Program-made: the position numbers and the translations under genes | NCBI RefSeq assembly: GCF_053078305.1 | Contig: NZ_CP166879.1 | Reading direction: 5' to 3' (one strand) | DNA: 64,000 bases | The notes under the pieces: generated by a model | The model's input: the letters and a program-made list of their open reading frames with translations, nothing else | The model's database searches: none | Told to the model about the DNA's origin: nothing | In this document: positions 1,364 through 64,000 of the stretch, one piece after another | Layout: each line of letters starts with the position of its first letter | How positions within the stretch are numbered: the first letter of the stretch is position 1

Positions 1364-2109
1364 AGATGCTGGCGGAAAAATGTCACGGCAGCATCTAACG
1401 CCTCAGGCGTAATGCGGTGACGCACGCCTGGCTGCCATGAACAGGTTAGCAGTTTATCCCGTCCCGTCTCGCTTAAGGCCTGCTGCAAACGTAGTGATTC
1501 GTCGGCAGGCACAACGTCATCGTCGAGGCCATGCCACAGCAGTAGAGGTCTGTCACTAAGTTGTTCCAGGTGGTTTGTCGCTTCCCACTCTGCCAGTGGC
1601 GCGACAATGTTATTGAATTCATTCTGCTGTGCTGCCGTTTCAGGTATCAGCGGTGGAAACAGTGAACGGGCGAGTGATGTAAAATAGCCCGATCCCATCA
1701 TGCTGGCGGTACATCTCACCGTGGGGTGGCGAGCGGTAATCCCCAGTGCCGTCATCGCGCCCATCGACGCACCACCGACTGCCAGACGGTCATCACGCAG
1801 CCACTTTTCTTCGGCTATTGCCGCACGTAAAGTAGTGAATTCCTGCATACTTTGTAGCAAGATTTGCCAGAATTGATTTAACCGCCGCGCTGCGTCGCCA
1901 CTAAAACGGCTACCGTGATCGGGCGCATCCGGCATGATCACCCGCAAACCAGCCTGCGCCAGCGCAACGGCAAAATAGCTATACACCAGACTGGACGAAG
2001 TAAAGCCGTGATAAAAAATCACGCACGGTAACGGGGTATCTTTTTGTCCGACAGGATAAGCATGAAGAACGGGAATATCTGCCAGCTCGCGTGATTCTAT
2101 TTCAATCAT
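1360..2109 (-). CDS. yjfP: alpha/beta-hydrolase esterase YjfP
   Basis: ORF 249 aa with GxSxG-type hydrolase motif (GGASMG); synteny next to ulaR. Confidence 0.9.
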
Positions 2110-26404: not shown

Positions 26405-26480
<76 letters not shown>

Positions 26481-26515
26481 TTGGGTGGTCTGTGCCTTAC
26501 AGCACTTTCAAATTT

Positions 26516-26591
<76 letters not shown>

Positions 26592-26627
26592 TTGGGTGGT
26601 CTGTGCTTTGCAGCACTTTTCAAATTT

Positions 26628-26703
<76 letters not shown>

Positions 26704-55157: not shown

Positions 55158-55193
55158 ACGACACTTGCAGTGGGAAAGACGGAGGAAAATAGC

Positions 55194-55769
55194 GTGCAAC
55201 GTGAAGATGTACTGGGAGAAGCCCTGAAATTATTAGAATTACAAGGGATTGCCAACACCACGCTGGAGATGGTTGCTGAACGTGTGGATTATCCACTGGA
55301 CGAGCTACGCCGCTTCTGGCCAGACAAAGAGGCAATCCTCTACGATGCGCTGCGTTATCTTAGCCAACAGATAGATATCTGGCGTCGTCAGCTGATGCTG
55401 GACGAAACGCAAACCGCCGAACAAAAGCTGCTGGCACGTTATCAGGCGTTATCGGAGTGCGTTAAAAACAACCGCTATCCGGGCTGTCTATTTATCGCTG
55501 CCTGTACGTTTTATCCCGATCCTGGCCACCCTATTCATCAACTGGCCGATCAGCAAAAAAGCGCGGCCTACGATTTCACCCACGAACTGTTAACCACGTT
55601 GGAAGTTGACGATCCGGCGATGGTAGCAAAGCAGATGGAACTGGTGCTGGAAGGCTGTTTAAGCCGAATGCTGGTAAATCGTAGCCAGGCGGATGTCGAC
55701 ACTGCACATCGGCTGGCGGAAGATATCCTGCGCTTCGCCCGCTGCCGCCAGGGTGGCGCATTGACCTGA
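55194..55769 (+). CDS. yjdC: TetR-family transcriptional regulator YjdC
   Basis: GTG 55194 within ORF 55170..55769; N-terminal TetR HTH. Confidence 0.85.
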
Positions 55770-55875: not shown

Positions 55876-55951
55876 GCCCGGATAGCTCAGTCGGTAGAGC
55901 AGGGGATTGAAAATCCCCGTGTCGGTGGTTCGATTCCGCCTCCGGGCACCA
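55876..55951 (+). tRNA. pheU: tRNA-Phe (GAA) with variant T-stem
   Basis: GCCCGGATAGCTCAGTCGGTAGAGCAGGGGATTGAAAATCCCCGTGTCGGTGGTTCGATTCCGCCTCCGGGCACCA; identical to recalled E. coli tRNA-Phe except two compensatory base-pair changes in the T-stem (49-65 and 50-64). Confidence 0.95.
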
Positions 55952-56146
55952 TATACCAGAACACGCTGGTTAAGGGATGAGATCCTTGACGGGCGGTTAA
56001 TACAGGATGCGGCATCAAAGGGTCTCCGTTTGTGTAAGTTGTGGTTACACTGATTGAGTTCGGTATCGTATCCTCAAACAGGGTCTCTTTTGCAGAGACG
56101 CCCTGTTCTCGTTAACACTGTATGCTTACATTGCTGATTCAGCCTG

Positions 56147-57217
56147 TCAAGATTTATTCCCCCCTTTGCAAATCTTGCTCACTGTGCGCTCATCTGTATA
56201 CAAACTCAGGGCATCTTCCAGTGTCTGCGCTGCAGACTCCATACAGACATCAACATACCCCATGGTCGTTGTAAGACTCCTGTGTCCCAGTATGGATTTG
56301 ACCAGATGTAAATTACGTTCAGGATATTTCATCAGTCTGGTTGCCAGCGTATGTCTGAAACGATGTGGTGAAACAGGAAAACCACATTCTCGCGAAAGTC
56401 GCCGGAAAAATGAACGTACGGTCTGATGCGCCCGAACGGGACAGTACTGATATCTGTCGGCAGAGATCGGCTCACTGAAACGACAGACGTCAAAAAGATA
56501 GTCATCATCACCTGCCCCGCACTGACGGGCCCGCTCCAGCAGTTTTTCCATCGATACCTTCAGGGGAGCCACCAGAGGAACGCCCCATTCCCTGTGAGTT
56601 TTACTTCCCTCCAGCTTAAGATCAATTATGCTTTCATCCGGACAGACATCCCTCACACGGATATGCTTCAGTTGATTAAAGCGCATTCCGGTATAACGCA
56701 GAACATCCAGAACTGTCAGCCAGTACCAGGCAGGGTATATAGCATTGCGTCGACGACTATTCACCATGTTCTGCTCTTCCGCTTCTGCAAACCTCTGCAC
56801 AACCAGGTAAACCCTGAGCATCTGATTGTCACTCAGTGTCTTTTTCTTTTTTTCAGTACTCGCAACTGATGCTTCCACCAACGGGTTTTCTGTCTGAGGC
56901 AGCAGTTTCATCTTGATCCCGAATCCCATAATTGCCCGCAAGTGGGCCACCTTGTTATTCCAGGTCACCTCCCTGCGCTTCTGCTCTTTCAGGACATAAC
57001 GCCGGTATCGCTGAACATCACGGACAGTCACCTCCCCCGGCAAAATATCACCGATAAATTCCCTGAATACCCTGACAACTTTGCAGTAGCTCCACTCTGT
57101 ATCCGGCCGAAGATTCTTTGAAAAAAAGTACTCTTCCAGCAGTTGTTCCCAGGTGATTTTTGTGACGGAATCGTCATTCTGCATTATATATTCCCCTTGT
57201 TTACTGTGCTCCCGCAC
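56147..57217 (-). CDS. tyrosine-type site-specific recombinase (island integrase)
   Basis: ORF 356 aa; C-terminal catalytic residues visible (HRFRHT ... LGHRS ... MGYV with catalytic Tyr); transcribed toward the tRNA-Phe attachment site; possible alternative start at ATG 57184. Confidence 0.85.
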   Translation of the reverse strand: MREHSKQGEYIMQNDDSVTKITWEQLLEEYFFSKNLRPDTEWSYCKVVRVFREFIGDILPGEVTVRDVQRYRRYVLKEQKRREVTWNNKVAHLRAIMGFGIKMKLLPQTENPLVEASVASTEKKKKTLSDNQMLRVYLVVQRFAEAEEQNMVNSRRRNAIYPAWYWLTVLDVLRYTGMRFNQLKHIRVRDVCPDESIIDLKLEGSKTHREWGVPLVAPLKVSMEKLLERARQCGAGDDDYLFDVCRFSEPISADRYQYCPVRAHQTVRSFFRRLSRECGFPVSPHRFRHTLATRLMKYPERNLHLVKSILGHRSLTTTMGYVDVCMESAAQTLEDALSLYTDERTVSKICKGGNKS

Positions 57218-57251: not shown

Positions 57252-58739
57252 TCACCCGAAAACAATAAGCGGGCTGTCTCCGGGAACCGTAATATTCCCG
57301 TACAGAAACCTGCCCTTAACCAGATATCCCGAAACCATTTTGTAACGTCCGGAATGTTCTGCGTCACTATAAAGACGGGCCTGAAAAAAACGCTCTCCTG
57401 AACGTACCTTATGGATACCTGCCCGTTCAAAGAGCGACTGAACATAACGACGATCCTGCCCGGAACCACTCTCCTTCAGAAAACGATAAAAAATCCCCGG
57501 GGCACACAGAAAAACATATCCGGAAACAACATGAACATTTGAATCAACGCTGTTAACCGAAAGTGAACCCTCCCTCAGCCCCTCTTTTAACCATCTGATA
57601 AATTCACTCTCTACCCTGCTATCCTCTGTCAGGGAAAACTCTGCCGTTTTTTCCACTGTTTCCGGGATACGGTTTCCCTGATTTTCTGTTACACATCCGC
57701 TCTCTTCCGGTAACTCAATACCGCTTTCTTTATCCGGCGGCACGCCTGACGCTATCTGCCCTCCCTCATCCGACAAATCAGCAGCAGAAAACAGCGTAAG
57801 GAGCATTCCGGTATCAGCATCAGTTTCGTTCCCCTCATCCACCTCCTGTTCCGCTGTCCGGCCCTCATTTTCGGCATCCTCCACTGGCGACTGTACAACC
57901 GGCAACGGCTGAATGACGCTTTCTGCTGAAATTGCTGCTGACTGCAGCAGTACCGGAACAACCTCAGCCACCGGAACTTCGGCCACATCTCCTGCAGCGA
58001 GGGGACTCACGACTTCCTCCATAGCTTCCTGTAATACTGTACGTATCAGTGCCATTTCAGGATGCTGATGCCAGACTGCTCCGGCAAGATTCTGTAATGC
58101 CCCCGGGACAGTGGCAAGCCAGGCTCCCGCCTCTCCGGGCAGCAGTTGTCCCGCCATCAGGGCTGCCAGTTGCCGTCCCTCCGTTCCCTGGCAGGGCATC
58201 TTCCTGAACCGGAACCGGTATACGCCCTCAGGTACAGATATCCCCGGCTGCCAGCATCTGCCGTCGGCCTGTTCGCCTTCCAGTTCCGCCAGCAACGGCA
58301 GGTGATAAAACAGAGCCGACCAGAACACCACCATGTTCCACACACTCCCCTGCGCGGCCTGCTCTTCTGCTGTCGCTCCCGGTGGAAACATTCTGCCTCT
58401 GGCCAGCCGGACAGCATACGTCGTGAACTGCAGGGTCAGGTCACCAAAACCACCGGTGTAACCCCAGCGACCTTCTGCTGTGGCCGGCAGATTCTGACTG
58501 ACAGACAACAACTGATGCACAGGATCAAGACAAAGGCGCTGATACATATCCACCGGCATGGAACTGTTTTCCCATAACTGTTTCAGACACCTTTTCCTGA
58601 ACGGTGTGGATACCAGTACATCAGCCGGCAATGGTGTAAAATACCCCTCCGGCACCGTTTCCCCGGGAATATCCGTCCGGACATCAGAACATTCTGTCTT
58701 CACAGGAAATAACCTTTTCAGGCGTTCAAGCATGCCCAT
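57252..58739 (-). CDS. hypothetical 495-aa protein, translationally coupled partner of the SF1 helicase
   Basis: ORF 57252..58739; start overlaps helicase stop by 14 nt; N-domain and C-domain separated by an acidic low-complexity linker (about 57,630-57,900); no Walker A, HD or HNH motif recognisable by eye. Confidence 0.6.
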   Translation of the reverse strand: MGMLERLKRLFPVKTECSDVRTDIPGETVPEGYFTPLPADVLVSTPFRKRCLKQLWENSSMPVDMYQRLCLDPVHQLLSVSQNLPATAEGRWGYTGGFGDLTLQFTTYAVRLARGRMFPPGATAEEQAAQGSVWNMVVFWSALFYHLPLLAELEGEQADGRCWQPGISVPEGVYRFRFRKMPCQGTEGRQLAALMAGQLLPGEAGAWLATVPGALQNLAGAVWHQHPEMALIRTVLQEAMEEVVSPLAAGDVAEVPVAEVVPVLLQSAAISAESVIQPLPVVQSPVEDAENEGRTAEQEVDEGNETDADTGMLLTLFSAADLSDEGGQIASGVPPDKESGIELPEESGCVTENQGNRIPETVEKTAEFSLTEDSRVESEFIRWLKEGLREGSLSVNSVDSNVHVVSGYVFLCAPGIFYRFLKESGSGQDRRYVQSLFERAGIHKVRSGERFFQARLYSDAEHSGRYKMVSGYLVKGRFLYGNITVPGDSPLIVFG

Positions 58740-60276
58740 TCTCCTGAACCCGACCTGATGTGTCGTACCCGGTCCCCCGCAGACCTTCAGTTTTCTGCTG
58801 TTCTTCTGCCAGTTGGTGCATCAGGTCATTCAGTACCAGCGTCCTGAGGGCCCGGGTGACAGCCACATATAACAGACAGGTTTCATCATGACGCTCGGCC
58901 TCCGTCATCAGCGGAACCGTGATATCCTGGAAATCCTCATCCAGCATTACAACCGGCCACTCCAGCCCCTTGCTCCGGTGTGCCGTTGACACCGTGATAT
59001 CTGCATCCTGCTCATTCGTTACCGTATACTGCCGGAGAAGTTCCAGTTTTTTCGGTAACGGAAAACACAACTCCAGAAGCCGAAGGGACTGATTCATCTC
59101 CACATCCTTCGTGGATTTTGCAATATATTTATATTCTTCAAAATTCCTGTAGTCCCGGCGCAGCCTGTCTGAATGCATCCGTTCCGGCATATCAACCTGG
59201 AACCAGTAGAGATCCTCAAGTTCCCCGGTCCTGTAACCTTCGATTCCCCCCACCCAGTAAACCTTTTGCCCTTTCATTGCCGCCATCAGCGCAGTACCAA
59301 TCACACCCGCGACAGTACGACTGAGTACCGTGTAATGCCCCTGCAGATGTTCACGCGCATGGCATTTCAGCAATACCTCATCATCACCACCACAACCTTT
59401 CACCTCTCGTGTTTCACCTTCACGCTGCAGAAGCAGATTTGCCATACGAGCCACCGCCGGACCAAAACGGAAACTCTGTGTCAGCCACAACCGGTCCGCA
59501 TTCTTCAGTGCAGGATGGGAAAGCGCATTATTCGCACCCCGAAAGCGGTAAATCTGTTGATAACAATCTCCAACAAGGACCACCCGACACTTCTGCCCCA
59601 GAACCAGAGCAGTGGTCACCGGATTCGCATCCTGCGCCTCATCAAACAGGATGGTGTCCCATCGGTGAGACAGGTCTGCACCGGACAACTGGAAGAGTTT
59701 CAGATAAGTATCGTGCGTCACCGGGAACGTCCCCCCGGGGTTGCTCATTTCGTTCCAGAGCAACTGCACCGCCCGAAGCGCATCTGCTGGCGGAACACCC
59801 CGCATCTCATCCTTATCCGGCAGGTGATGCAGGCCCGGTACCGCATCAGCAGAACAGATAAAATGATTCAGCCCCGTCCCTGCCACCCGTGCCAGAGCCC
59901 AGTATCGTGTATTCAGCTTTCTCGCCACATCAGTAATACGTAATCCCGGAACCAGCCGATGACGGTAGTGTCTTCCAACCCGGGCATACGCCAGCTGATG
60001 TGACGTTCTGCATTCCACGTTAAAGGGAAATTTACGCTCTGCCTCATCACGTATTGCCCGGTTATAGGCAAGATAGAGCATACGGCTGTCCGGACTGGCC
60101 CGGGCAAACTGCACCAGCGTACTCGTCTTCCCTGTGCCGGAAAACGCATTCACAACCAGTTGCTGCCCCTGCCAGTTAATAATGGCGTACTGTTCATCTG
60201 TGGGATTAAAAGACATGTATTCTCTTCTCCGGAAAAACATTTCCGTAATCTGATGCATCAGGGGTATGCCCACCAC
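58726..60276 (-). CDS. superfamily-1 UvrD/PcrA-like DNA helicase
   Basis: ORF 516 aa; Walker A SGTGKT (about 60,124-60,141), motif II FDEAQD, motif IV QSFRF, motif V/VI TAHRSKGLEWPVV; true start may be an internal ATG (MSFNPTDEQ..., 60216). Confidence 0.85.
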   Translation of the reverse strand: MVGIPLMHQITEMFFRRREYMSFNPTDEQYAIINWQGQQLVVNAFSGTGKTSTLVQFARASPDSRMLYLAYNRAIRDEAERKFPFNVECRTSHQLAYARVGRHYRHRLVPGLRITDVARKLNTRYWALARVAGTGLNHFICSADAVPGLHHLPDKDEMRGVPPADALRAVQLLWNEMSNPGGTFPVTHDTYLKLFQLSGADLSHRWDTILFDEAQDANPVTTALVLGQKCRVVLVGDCYQQIYRFRGANNALSHPALKNADRLWLTQSFRFGPAVARMANLLLQREGETREVKGCGGDDEVLLKCHAREHLQGHYTVLSRTVAGVIGTALMAAMKGQKVYWVGGIEGYRTGELEDLYWFQVDMPERMHSDRLRRDYRNFEEYKYIAKSTKDVEMNQSLRLLELCFPLPKKLELLRQYTVTNEQDADITVSTAHRSKGLEWPVVMLDEDFQDITVPLMTEAERHDETCLLYVAVTRALRTLVLNDLMHQLAEEQQKTEGLRGTGYDTSGRVQENGHA

Positions 60277-60447: not shown

Positions 60448-62124
60448 ATGTCCGAAGTAAAAAAACACGTTTCTTATTCATTAACAGTTGCAGCTATGCT
60501 GTCAGCCGCCATCGTCTGTCAGACAGCACATGCTGATATCAACACACCGAACATCACCGGAGAAAAAAACAATACAACAACACGATTCTCCGGAAATATT
60601 TACGGCAGTGAAAATACTGTCACATCAGAGTCAAACAGTCTGGTTGTGGGTAACAGTAATTCCGTGGAGGGAGGGTATAACAACATTGTTATTGGTAATT
60701 CCTCCACGGTCAAAGCTTCCGGTTTGATCAGAAAAGTGGGCGAAGATATTGTGCTGGATGGTTACAGCGTCAGCCTCGGTAATGCCACCAGAATTAACGG
60801 TGATTCATCTGTTGCCATAGGTCTGACATCGTCCGTAACCGGGAACGACTCCGTGGCACTGGGCAGTCATTCCAGTGCTAACGGAAACAATATCGTATCC
60901 GTCGGCTCTGACACACTGAAACGCCGCATCACAAATCTGGCACAGGGGAAAGATGACCATGATGCGGTAAATCTGATGCAGATGACCAGTGCTGTTAACC
61001 GGGAAGCTGGAGAAAGAATAAAATCAACAAACAACCTGCAGAATCAGCTTAATACCCTCTCTGGTCAGGTCATAACTGAAACCAGGGCCCGAACAGAAGG
61101 TGATGCAGCAGCGCTGGCTGCAGCCAGAGCCCACAGCGATGAAAACGACAAAAGAACACTGGTCAGTGCGAATACCTATGCTGACCAGAAAGAAACCGCC
61201 ATCAATAACCGTACTGACGGATTACTGACGACCGAACGCCAGGCACGCACCGCAGGCGATACTGCAACTCTGGCTGCTGCCAGAACGCACAGCGATGAAA
61301 ACAACAAAAGAACACTGATCAGTGCGAATACCTATGCTGACCAGAAAGAAACCGCCATCAATAACCGTACTGACGGATTACTGGCTACAGAACGCCAGGC
61401 ACGCACCGCAGGCGATACTGCAACTCTGGCTGCTGCCAGAACGCACAGCGATGAAAACAACAAAAGAACACTGGTCAGTGCGAATACTTATGCTGACCAG
61501 AAAGAAACCGACATCAATAACCGTACTGACGGATTACTGGCTACAGAACGCCAGGCACGCACCGCAGGCGATACTGCAACTCTGGCTGCTGCCAGAACGC
61601 ACAGCGATGAAAACAACAAAAGAACACTGATCAGTGCGAATACCTATGCTGACCAGAAAGAAACCGCCATCAATAACCGTACTGACGGATTACTGACGAC
61701 CGAACGCCAGGCACGCATCGCAGGTGATGCCGCAACTCTGGCAACAGCAGCGGCATACAGTGACGCCGGGGATTCACTGACACTGAAACAGGCAACAGCC
61801 TACAGCGATATCAGTACCCGCCGGGCACTGTCAGAGGCCAATCGTTATACCGACAACAAATTCAGAAACCTGAGCAATAAAATTGAACGGGCAGAAAAAA
61901 GACTTAATGCAGGCATCGCCGGAGTGACAGCAATATCCTCCATCCCCTATGTGGCTGAAAATTCTTTTTCATACGGGATCGGCGTGGGTAACTATCAGAA
62001 CGCTAATGCTGTGGCCGCAGGCATTCAGTATAAAACATCACGTAATACCAATATACGCCTCAACATCTCCTGGGACTCATCTCATAACACCGCGATTGGT
62101 GCAGGGGTTGCCGGCGGCTGGTAA
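60448..62124 (+). CDS. YadA-like trimeric autotransporter adhesin (Eib/Saa-like architecture)
   Basis: ORF 558 aa; signal peptide, head with NSxxxG/SxxxG YadA-head repeats, neck, repeat-containing coiled-coil stalk, C-terminal YadA-type beta-barrel anchor ending ...AIGAGVAGGW. Confidence 0.85.
   Translation: MSEVKKHVSYSLTVAAMLSAAIVCQTAHADINTPNITGEKNNTTTRFSGNIYGSENTVTSESNSLVVGNSNSVEGGYNNIVIGNSSTVKASGLIRKVGEDIVLDGYSVSLGNATRINGDSSVAIGLTSSVTGNDSVALGSHSSANGNNIVSVGSDTLKRRITNLAQGKDDHDAVNLMQMTSAVNREAGERIKSTNNLQNQLNTLSGQVITETRARTEGDAAALAAARAHSDENDKRTLVSANTYADQKETAINNRTDGLLTTERQARTAGDTATLAAARTHSDENNKRTLISANTYADQKETAINNRTDGLLATERQARTAGDTATLAAARTHSDENNKRTLVSANTYADQKETDINNRTDGLLATERQARTAGDTATLAAARTHSDENNKRTLISANTYADQKETAINNRTDGLLTTERQARIAGDAATLATAAAYSDAGDSLTLKQATAYSDISTRRALSEANRYTDNKFRNLSNKIERAEKRLNAGIAGVTAISSIPYVAENSFSYGIGVGNYQNANAVAAGIQYKTSRNTNIRLNISWDSSHNTAIGAGVAGGW
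61087..61710 (+). repeat. four near-identical tandem 156-bp (52-aa) repeats within the adhesin stalk, plus a degenerate fifth copy
   Basis: Units begin at 61087, 61243, 61399, 61555 (each starting gca cgc acc gca ggc gat = ARTAGD); partial degenerate unit from 61711. Confidence 0.9.
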
Positions 62125-62296: not shown

Positions 62297-62363
62297 GCCC
62301 GTTAACATTTAACTTCGTGGGCTGACGTTGCCACAAGCACCGTATTTCCCTGATTTATTCTGT

Positions 62364-62852
62364 TTATTTTATTGTGGATAATGATGCCAATGGCATGAAT
62401 AAAGTTCTTCCGGACTCCGGGAACGCCATAAAGCCATAATGTTTGTAAAATGCGACTGCCGTGTCATCTTTTGCATCAACAATAAGCGCATATGCTGCAA
62501 TTTCAGATGTGTATGCACGATATAGCGCATCAGCTAAAAGTGCTCCCCCAAGCCCCGTTCCTTTTGATGACAGACTTACTGCCAGTCGTCCCATACGAAT
62601 AGCCGGAATAGTGGGATATCGCGGAAGCTTTTTTCTCAAATGCTCAGGTAAGTCAGTTAATAATATACTGGCCGCTGATAACGTATAGTATCCGATGATA
62701 TGATGATCGTTATCTACAGCGACAAAACAGGCCGCGATGCGTCGTCGAATATCCTGTGTGACATGCTCTTTTATGTAACGGTCCAGAGCATCAGAGCCAC
62801 ATAAAAATGAGGTTCTGTCATATGTGCTGTTAAATGGTGTCAGTTGAAACAT
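62364..62852 (-). CDS. GNAT-family acetyltransferase toxin (TacT/AtaT/KacT-like)
   Basis: ORF 162 aa; acetyl-CoA-binding region with Gly-rich loop (TGLGGALLADA) and conserved Tyr; sits 5 nt downstream of a DUF1778 gene. Confidence 0.82.
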   Translation of the reverse strand: MFQLTPFNSTYDRTSFLCGSDALDRYIKEHVTQDIRRRIAACFVAVDNDHHIIGYYTLSAASILLTDLPEHLRKKLPRYPTIPAIRMGRLAVSLSSKGTGLGGALLADALYRAYTSEIAAYALIVDAKDDTAVAFYKHYGFMAFPESGRTLFMPLASLSTIK

Positions 62853-62857
62853 TATAT

Positions 62858-63139
62858 TTATTTTGTGTACAGCATATTATTACGGCGTTTAAAGGCCCGT
62901 TTAAGCGCATCATTCGGCTCTGTTGGTGACAGTAATGCCTGAGCAAAAATTTCCTGATCTGTCCGGGACAGTCGGATTATATCGGTTTGTTCGATAGCGC
63001 GTTGGGCCGCATCCTGAACGGCAGCAATGATAAAATCGGTCATAGTGCGCCCCTGGATTTCTGCAGCGCGCTTCAGCATGGCATGTAGTTCTGTGCTGAT
63101 CCTTGCTTCCAGTCGGGCAGTTTGTGTTGCAGATGGCAT
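62858..63139 (-). CDS. DUF1778 (RHH-like) antitoxin, TacA-like
   Basis: ORF 93 aa; N-terminal segment RLEARISTELHAMLKRAAEIQGRTMTDFI typical of DUF1778 antitoxins; upstream of the GNAT toxin. Confidence 0.8.
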   Translation of the reverse strand: MPSATQTARLEARISTELHAMLKRAAEIQGRTMTDFIIAAVQDAAQRAIEQTDIIRLSRTDQEIFAQALLSPTEPNDALKRAFKRRNNMLYTK

Positions 63140-63374
63140 GATTTGTACCTCCTGAATACACTGTACGGCAAATTGCCGTATTGTGCAAATTACACTCTGA
63201 CACCGGGACGGCAGACAGACATTCTGCCTGAAAAGAAAAATCAGATTCAGACAAAACTATCCGGGGGATGTTAACGCCACGATCTTTGACCATTGCATAC
63301 AGATAAAAGCTCAGATTATTTACCAGCAGTGACATCCGGAGTACACCGGGATTTTATCTGTGAGTGAACATACC

Positions 63375-63556: not shown

Positions 63557-64000
63557 TCACCGGATATAGGAGAAGGCCGTCGTGACCCGCTTCACTCCGC
63601 TCACCCTACTGGCAACATCTGCTGCCGCTCGCCCTTCCTGCTCTGTAACCAGGCCCAGTAAAAAGACTTCGCTGTTTTCTGTCACCACCTTGACACTGGA
63701 TGATTTGACACGGGCACTTGTGAGTAACTGAGAACGAATTTTTGTCGTAAGCCAGGCATCACCTGCCATTATGACCGGACTGACGGGTGTCCCCTGCCGG
63801 ATTTCATTATAGACCTCCTGAACACCATCGACACCGAGTGCTATCTGACGGGCACGGGCAGATAATTCACGGCCCGGAGACTGACCGATCAGCAGCACGC
63901 GTCCCTGATATGCAATCTCACTGATACGTGCTTCTTTTCTGATTTGTTCATCTTTTGAAAGTGCACTGCTGACCCTCAGCTCCAGCACTTCATCATCCAC
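63557..64000 (-). CDS. DolP/YraP-like dual-BON-domain lipoprotein paralog, C-terminal 147 aa (5' end outside window)
   Basis: Translation aligns by eye along its whole visible length with recalled E. coli DolP (YraP), e.g. LEVRVNSALSKDEQIKKEARI / GQSP..ELSARA / VKRVTTAF blocks, at roughly 60-70% identity. Confidence 0.8.
   Translation of the reverse strand: MDDEVLELRVSSALSKDEQIRKEARISEIAYQGRVLLIGQSPGRELSARARQIALGVDGVQEVYNEIRQGTPVSPVIMAGDAWLTTKIRSQLLTSARVKSSSVKVVTENSEVFLLGLVTEQEGRAAADVASRVSGVKRVTTAFSYIR

Follow-up and report, generated by a model that had tools for sequence, protein, structure and literature searches.

The general principle by which islands occupy tRNA genes (tDNAs) is said to go back to Reiter in 1989 and Williams in 2002. 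An attP-borne fragment that regenerates the tDNA is the signature of such islands (PMC4383910), and the ICE found towards one end of the window—by which we mean the whole 64,000-nucleotide stretch of DNA analysed here—is alike in both of the features used by Islander: an intact tDNA beside the integrase gene at one end, and a displaced fragment marking the other end of the island. There is no difference in principle; the integration mechanism is already well known, indeed textbook, and the current view of tDNA integration is left unchanged. What is specific here is a repeat with four mismatches, arranged as two swapped base pairs, plus a cargo of subAB and adhesin genes. Because attP and attB differ naturally at these four positions, the crossover interval is visible in genome sequences alone, and the locus serves as a clean worked example for a clinically relevant family of ICEs.

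Several ICEs have been described at tRNA-Phe. ICEPm1 and ICEPm2 of Proteus have 52-bp repeats within the gene, that of ICEPm2 being reported with one mismatch (PMC11278526); ICEEc8 has a perfect 52-bp repeat (PMC6455142); and ICEEc2 (E. coli BEN374), CTnscr94 (Salmonella Senftenberg), YAPI and ICEPan are placed in the same family, also at tRNA-Phe (PMC4458695). Set beside these tRNA-Phe ICEs of the pKLC102/PAGI-2/SPI-7 group, the window ICE is alike in its pheU/pheV target, in a repeat of ~50–52 bp covering the 3′ two-thirds of the tRNA, in having its integrase at the tRNA end followed by a relaxase of the PFGI-1 class, and in the TIGR037xx, STY45xx and dnaB-PI annotations of its type IV secretion and replication/partition genes. 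ICEPm1/ICEPm3 are reported in two copies per genome and in tandem arrays, and the family of window-type ICEs behaves likewise. Against the perfect repeat of ICEEc8 and the single mismatch of ICEPm2, the repeat of the window-type ICE has four mismatches, which form two swapped T-stem pairs; the regenerated tRNA is therefore a different isoform from that of the host. The window-type cargo (subAB, YadA-like adhesins, sialic-acid genes) also differs, setting the element apart from the named ICEs as these are described. We found no paper noting a change of tRNA isoform at such ICEs, in a literature search with limited coverage of older work.

[quoted passage not shown] P4-type integrases have an N-terminal DUF4102 domain; for the window integrase, Pfam lists only the Phage_integrase and SAM-like N-terminal domains, and DUF4102 is absent. 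In E. coli ST58, the integrase of a PAI at tRNA-Phe is described as containing DUF4102 (PMC7371111). In P4-type islands the integrase is intP4 and the repeats, of 19–23 bp, begin in the T-loop (PMC11537424), whereas the window ICE has a 50-nt repeat from tRNA position 27, an XerC/D-like integrase that is convergent to the tRNA and has a SAM-like N-terminal domain, and the genes of a conjugative element. Judged from its sequence, then, the window element is not a P4-type pheV/pheU island.

The tRNA-Phe gene and the adjoining element

Working along the plus strand, we see that the locus to the left of the tRNA is the dsbD–dicD(yjdC)–pheU region of E. coli, and that it leads into a single tRNA-Phe gene (anticodon GAA), called complete by ARAGORN and of sequence GCCCGGATAGCTCAGTCGGTAGAGCAGGGGATTGAAAATCCCCGTGTCGGTGGTTCGATTCCGCCTCCGGGCACCA. 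The left flank and tRNA positions 1–48 are identical to K-12, and homology stops exactly at the CCA end; the 1-kb stretch that spans the tRNA is common to only 15 of 5,426 complete E. coli genomes. A first-pass annotation, made from the letters alone, had described two base-pair swaps in the T-stem that leave the stem preserved, by comparison with the canonical E. coli tRNA-Phe as given there. That canonical sequence proves to match both K-12 pheU and K-12 pheV exactly, and the window copy departs from the two genes only at tRNA positions 49, 50, 64 and 65 (window 55924, 55925, 55939 and 55940). Pair 49–65 changes from C-G to G-C and pair 50–64 from U-A to G-C; pairs 51–63 (U-G), 52–62 and 53–61 are as in K-12, and the 5-bp stem is retained. 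Scored against the Rfam tRNA model, the variant (taken from an identical copy in strain 154) reaches 69.1 bits and the canonical form 68.3 bits.

The variant 76-mer is the top match in 72 of the 5,429 E. coli records searched, and all remaining records fall in the 90–95% identity band, equivalent to four mismatches in 76; the 95–99% band, in which a half-swapped T-stem would lie, contains none of the 5,429. Chance or sequencing error as the source of the variant is ruled out by the 72 identical copies and the empty band, and the odd T-stem is confirmed as a real feature of this gene. Island-free E. coli have the canonical stem, as K-12 pheU and pheV attest, along with about 98.7% of complete E. 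coli genomes.

Table 1. Features at and around the tRNA-Phe gene, in window coordinates.
Feature	Position	Strand	Basis
Host yjdC/dicD, transcriptional regulator; left chromosomal flank of pheU	55170..55769	+	ORF; dicD annotation in all relatives and K-12
Chimeric complete tRNA-Phe(GAA), attL; 5′ part host, 3′ part ICE	55876..55951	+	ARAGORN, K-12 comparison, Rfam
50-nt att repeat, tRNA positions 27–76; canonical copy at the far ICE end in relatives	55902..55951	+	attL/attR/attB alignment, seven attR copies
Strand-exchange interval, tRNA positions 28–48	55903..55923	+	Tandem-ICE junction in 2015C-3121
Certainly ICE-derived part: T-arm GGTGG TTCGATT CCGCC, 3′ acceptor strand, CCA	55924..55951	+	K-12 mismatches; 73 genomes
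ICE left arm, tRNA to integrase stop codon; probable attP arm; two conserved hairpins	55952..56146	+	K-12 homology ends 55951; RNAalifold
ICE tyrosine recombinase (integrase), 356 aa, convergent with tRNA	56147..57217	-	Pfam Phage_integrase (7e-17) and SAM-like N-terminal domain
ICE relaxase, TraI of PFGI-1 class (MobH-related)	57252..58739	-	NCBIfam TIGR03760, 210.5 bits against cutoff 161.4
UvrD-like helicase, ICE end module	58726..60276	-	Weak NCBIfam helicase matches; UvrD-helicase domain annotation in all relatives
Cargo: YadA-like trimeric autotransporter adhesin	60448..62124	+	NCBIfam YadA_autotrans 2e-30, below cutoff; collinear with NZ_CP046539.1

The left arm of the ICE contains two hairpins, at about 55964–55995 and 56077–56107, that are kept across diverged ICE lineages; run on six lineage representatives, RNAalifold predicts 25 pairs in the arm, nine of them with changes on both sides. 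The second of these hairpins, which is G+C-rich, could serve as a two-way terminator in place of the displaced pheU terminator; a simple promoter and terminator scan around the tRNA, left arm included, made no call. Beyond the arm, the integrase is XerC/D-like in NCBIfam, with scores below the cutoffs. Twenty-three E. coli genomes match its region at 99% identity or more, and homologs at 43–71% amino-acid identity lie 3′ of tRNA-Phe in other E. coli and in Xenorhabdus, Photorhabdus and Pantoea. We rejected a reading of the three minus-strand ORFs after the tRNA as a ‘recombinase trio’, since they encode an integrase, a relaxase of the PFGI-1 class and a UvrD-like helicase.

Within the YadA-like adhesin gene (window 61082–61743) there are internal repeats, of a kind typical of adhesin stalks, which appear as BLAST self-matches offset by ~156 nt against the relative described below. 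Far to the left, on the minus strand at 26405–26703, stand three tandem tRNA-Gly(GCC) genes; these are unremarkable, and from K-12 gene order we take them to be the glyVXY cluster. No second copy of the tRNA-Phe 3′ end was found in the window beyond the gene itself, because the window stops 8 kb into the ICE, which runs on past its end at 64000.

The full element can be followed in the close relative NZ_CP046539.1, with which the window is collinear at about 99% from 36680 to 62352 and whose integrase region is 99.9% identical to that of the window. The inserted DNA there amounts to ~80 kb, from the integrase to a parA gene beside cadC. It begins with the tyrosine recombinase, the TraI-domain relaxase, the UvrD-like helicase, YadA-like adhesins, subAB and sialic-acid genes; continues through a complete TIGR037xx (TIGR03745–03759) set for ICE transfer / type IV secretion, with TraD and TraG; and ends with topoisomerase III, the STY4534 and STY4528 replication proteins, dnaB-PI, parB and parA, after which comes cadC. 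The type IV secretion and replication/partition module is taken from the RefSeq annotation of this collinear genome, and belongs to the region past the end of the window. On this gene content the window element is best classed as a SPI-7/pKLC102/PAGI-2 (PFGI-1 class) ICE of ~80 kb. Different strains have the same ICE at pheU, at pheV or in tandem, which indirectly favours excision to a circle and conjugative transfer. The family is of clinical relevance; its cargo comprises subAB and adhesins in STEC, and differs in other E. coli, avian isolates included.

The window and its relative also show local differences. An IS621 element lies near yjeI in NZ_CP046539.1 and is missing from the window (~45291), and at window 62352–63270 some 2.5 kb of the ICE, including a second YadA-like gene, is replaced by ~0.9 kb of unmatched sequence.

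The displaced 3′ end and the point of strand exchange

Between parA and cadC in NZ_CP046539.1 lies a 50-nt fragment, GGGGATTGAAAATCCCCGTGTCCTTGGTTCGATTCCGAGTCCGGGCACCA, that corresponds to tRNA-Phe positions 27–76 with the canonical CTTGG/CCGAG stem; the sequence that follows it is exactly that found downstream of K-12 pheU, including an apparent terminator hairpin. A canonical 3′ end displaced to the other boundary of the island, for which the first-pass annotation had suggested looking, is thus present in this genome. All seven attR copies that we read (this one, and six from other genomes and ICE lineages) have the canonical T-arm. For the window itself, the attR evidence is drawn from relatives whose junction and integrase region are 99–100% identical to its own. 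K-12 pheU represents the reconstructed empty site, supplying the window's left flank and tRNA positions 1–48 on one side, and the 3′ part of attR with its right flank on the other. The attL site then consists of K-12 left flank, positions 1–48, the variant T-arm and ICE DNA; attR, as seen in the relatives, consists of ICE DNA, canonical positions 27–76 and K-12 right flank.

Site-specific integration of the ICE into pheU, with regeneration of the gene by an ICE-borne 3′ part, is very probably what produced this arrangement. The first-pass annotation had read the T-stem as the footprint of island integration, and the chimeric attL, the displaced canonical fragment in relatives and the confinement of the variant to ICE junctions within E. 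coli all bear this out. In outline, a SPI-7/pKLC102/PFGI-1-type ICE of ~80 kb would integrate site-specifically into E. coli pheU by way of an attP that holds a 50-nt copy of tRNA-Phe positions 27–76, bearing in this lineage the GGTGG/CCGCC stem; such an attP can be modelled as ...CTCGCAACAC, followed by positions 27–76 with GGTGG/CCGCC, followed by TATACCAGAAC.... The ICE tyrosine recombinase would exchange strands within positions 28–48, most likely at the anticodon loop between the arms of the stem, so that the regenerated attL would join the host 5′ part to the ICE 3′ part, and the host's own 3′ part—canonical T-stem plus downstream flank—would be displaced ~80 kb, to attR. The two pairs look ‘compensated’ because both strands of the T-stem come from the ICE.

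Instead of a fresh integration, the strain of the window may have undergone homologous recombination that brought in the ICE together with its flanks from another E. coli: ICEs at pheU/pheV can drive Hfr-like transfer of the flanking chromosome (PMC13127887), and an attL that is already chimeric may spread in this way. Extending this idea, one could suppose that allelic exchange with a different species or lineage replaced the pheU region as a whole, and that no site-specific recombination took place inside the tRNA. We consider that improbable, since the left flank and positions 1–48 are those of K-12 and divergence begins only inside the tRNA; moreover, an attR fragment that begins at position 27 bears the signature of an att site, and a tandem junction (below) shows exchange inside the tRNA. 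Homologous replacement would account at most for later spread of the chimera and not for its origin.

The junctions also allow the position of the exchange to be narrowed. The att repeat begins at tRNA position 27, or at 28 where attR has T27 (as in NC101-type JA0257, C311 and PapRG-04-4), and the block of identity extends from there, in the anticodon stem, to the CCA end at position 76. Blocks running from the anticodon stem to the CCA form an ‘anticodon-loop’ sublocation class, attributed to Williams 2002 (bioRxiv 10.1101/2020.11.02.365908; PMC4383910). Strain 2015C-3121 (NZ_CP027340.1) has a window-type ICE in tandem behind another ICE of the same family, and the middle junction (1470–1560 of the extracted locus) reads T27, GGGATTGAAAATCCCCGTGTC, the variant T-arm and then window-type ICE DNA; the window-type ICE has evidently integrated into the attR of the other ICE, leaving the middle partial tRNA. 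Since the resident attR contributed T27 and the incoming ICE the variant T-arm, exchange must lie within positions 28–48 (Table 1), in agreement with the earlier proposal that the crossover was 5′ of position 49. This interval holds an inverted repeat, GGGGA / TCCCC, placed around the 7-nt anticodon loop TTGAAAA. An inverted repeat with a spacer is the layout typical of tyrosine-recombinase core sites, and strand exchange, mapped to these 21 nt, most likely takes place at the loop itself.

A crossover further 3′, in the T-loop or at the 3′ end in the manner of P4, would have the island contribute only the 3′ strand of the stem, the 5′ strand being repaired or compensated later. There is precedent for this at the same genes, with P4-type islands at pheV using 19–23-bp repeats that start in the T-loop (PMC11537424) and a P4-integrase remnant, yjdQ, lying after K-12 pheU. 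For the ICE in the window we nevertheless judge it highly improbable: the repeat has a length of 50 nt, from position 27 onwards; a stem that pairs a variant with a canonical strand is absent from tRNA-Phe in all 5,429 E. coli records; the integrase, convergent to the tRNA, has a Pfam match to a SAM-like N-terminal domain and none to DUF4102; and by the tandem junction strand exchange lies 5′ of position 49. For those ICEs that have a canonical attL we also considered, and rejected, a reciprocal crossover 3′ of the T-stem, JA0257/NC101 being canonical at both ends and no attR among those read having the variant arm.

Several further observations concern the sequences around attR. RefSeq labels the displaced fragments ‘tRNA-Ser’ or ‘tRNA-OTHER’ (at two loci, 394–471 and 389–467), although they are really partial tRNA-Phe; mis-called tRNA fragments of this kind are discussed in PMC9897764. 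The ~100 bp of ‘pheU flank’ that follows tRNA-Phe is also found after attR at pheV sites, where it then gives way to different DNA. We discarded a chromosomal inversion as the explanation for pheU-type flank at pheV, these ~100 bp being common to both and running on into different DNA. We interpret the shared ~100 bp as the left end of P4-type islands, with K-12 yjdQ as the remnant of their integrase; on this view older P4-type islands would already have been resident beside both tRNA genes when the ICEs inserted between island and tRNA. In strain E24377A (~1240–1270 of the extracted locus) all that remains of a tRNA beside the left end of the ICE is a 22-nt stretch (TTCGATTCCGAGTCCGG-CACCA), in form like the attR of a P4-type GI-pheV island; here, a P4-type island was apparently inserted later, between tRNA and ICE.

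Distribution of the variant in E. coli and its likely effect

Our census query joined the variant T-arm to 59 nt of ICE flank, and can seed only on the variant arm. It identifies the variant in 73 of 5,426 complete E. coli genomes, which divide by junction into 23 of window type, 20 of C5/APEC type and 30 of AR_0089 type. The 23 window-type junctions match at 98–100% identity and are therefore all variant; those of AR_0089 type are 30 full-length matches at 100%, and make up the remaining 30 of the 73. The variant T-arm sits on an ICE junction in every one of these 73 genomes, none of which, from the 5,426 complete E. coli, has it without such a junction; at every locus fetched, whether pheU or pheV, the integrase, TraI and UvrD genes are annotated right 3′ of the tRNA. 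In E. coli, a tRNA-Phe with GGTGG/CCGCC is thus a perfect in-silico marker of these ICE junctions (73/73), and about 1.3% of complete genomes have a tRNA-Phe isoform supplied by a mobile element, which in some is the sole tRNA-Phe.

These counts bear on the simplest alternative to integration, that pheU acquired two compensatory substitutions in place by mutation and selection, and that the island is unrelated. Compensatory evolution does predict a preserved T-stem, and the same T-stem occurs as a natural allele in other Gammaproteobacteria. In-place mutation would however have to deliver four coordinated substitutions with zero intermediates in 5,429 records, and to do so identically at pheU and at pheV, in unrelated strains, only where an ICE junction follows; nor does it accommodate the persistence of the canonical 3′ part as a displaced fragment. 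We give it almost no credence, and regard it as effectively refuted already.

In strain 154 (NZ_CP067426.1) both pheU and pheV are variant, each with its own ICE, and these are the only two tRNA-Phe genes of the genome. Its entire tRNA-Phe supply is therefore element-encoded, and the ICE-supplied isoform is sufficient for growth. Strains OkiPb01714, OkiPb01692 and OkiPb01696 appear to be like strain 154, going by the positions of their matches.

According to PMC3239215, the affinity of a tRNA for EF-Tu is set by three T-stem pairs, 49–65 and 50–64 among them. The averaged values given there are −0.4 kcal/mol for C-G to G-C at 49–65 and 0.0 for U-A to G-C at 50–64, from which an additive model predicts a total shift of about −0.4 kcal/mol, within the spread (σ 0.3–0.6) given in Table 1 of that source for the tRNA classes consulted. 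From the smallness of this predicted shift, and from the facts that both forms occur in nature and that strain 154 is viable, we infer that the swap of the T-stem is nearly neutral.

Probable source of the T-arm and its apparent exchange between elements

An exact scan for the 33-nt variant 3′ end, with one genome per species, returned at least 120 loci. The genera among the matches listed are Vibrio, Aliivibrio, Photorhabdus, Xenorhabdus, Arsenophonus, Marinobacter, Alcanivorax, Idiomarina and Marinobacterium, and the full 76-mer of the window recurs unchanged in at least 36 places among these matches. Both tRNA-Phe genes of Xenorhabdus ehlersii are identical to it, each with its own chromosomal flank, and it is the native tRNA-Phe of Alcanivorax and Marinobacterium species as well. 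The commonest form among the matches listed (at least 60 places) has one further compensated swap, at 28–42, which we saw in the Vibrio, Photorhabdus and Arsenophonus loci inspected. Integrase homologs at 43–53% amino-acid identity lie convergent to, and 3′ of, tRNA-Phe in Xenorhabdus mauleonii, in three or four Photorhabdus species and in Pantoea stewartii, and attR-like partial tRNA copies starting from positions 27–33 occur in several of the scanned genera. The first-pass annotation had the island coming from a donor with a different T-stem. This holds in so far as the variant is native in other Gammaproteobacteria, with related integrases at tRNA-Phe there, but the T-arm singles out no particular donor. 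The T-arm would accordingly reflect an earlier host with that tRNA-Phe, a reading that is well founded, if less firm than the chimera itself.

The association of T-arm and ICE lineage is a loose one. NC101-type elements (checked in JA0257) have a canonical tRNA, followed by a flank that is a near-match to that of the variant-bearing C5; the junction flank of ACN002, which is canonical, is near-identical to those of AR_0089 and 5CRE51, which are variant. Most C5-type junctions in E. coli are canonical (rows at 96.3% and 95.4% identity, against two records at 99% or above), and at AR_0089-type junctions the two arms are roughly equally common (30 variant, some 25 or more canonical). JA0257 has the canonical arm at attL and attR alike; this, with the perfect 52-bp repeat of ICEEc8, shows that attP is itself polymorphic. 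Since near-identical junctions carry either T-arm, the att-borne segment is exchangeable, is no stable marker of lineage and names no donor. The whole T-arm seems to be exchanged as a unit between copies, which have one arm or the other and never a hybrid; candidate routes are gene conversion with another tRNA-Phe gene or with attR, and recombination between co-resident ICEs.

A bolder proposal is that ICEs regularly trade a 17-nt T-arm module, among themselves or with the tRNA-Phe genes of their hosts, and that selection acts on which arm is kept; this strikes us as unlikely. If it were true, the four mismatches between attL and attR could suppress RecA-mediated loss of the element or tune its excision, and the changed EF-Tu-tuning pairs could slightly alter the delivery of Phe-tRNA where the tRNA-Phe pool is all ICE-encoded.

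Two oddities emerged from the scan. Two MAG contigs binned as Firmicutes / Clostridia carry a Gammaproteobacteria-type tRNA-Phe 3′ end with identical downstream sequence, and may represent mis-binning or a mobile element. The tRNA-Phe of Pantoea stewartii (~1488–1563, minus strand) has the variant 3′ part together with A6 opposite C67, a mismatch in the acceptor stem, and a related integrase (43% amino-acid identity) lies just 3′ of it; this tRNA may be a chimera of host 5′ and element 3′ parts that do not match.
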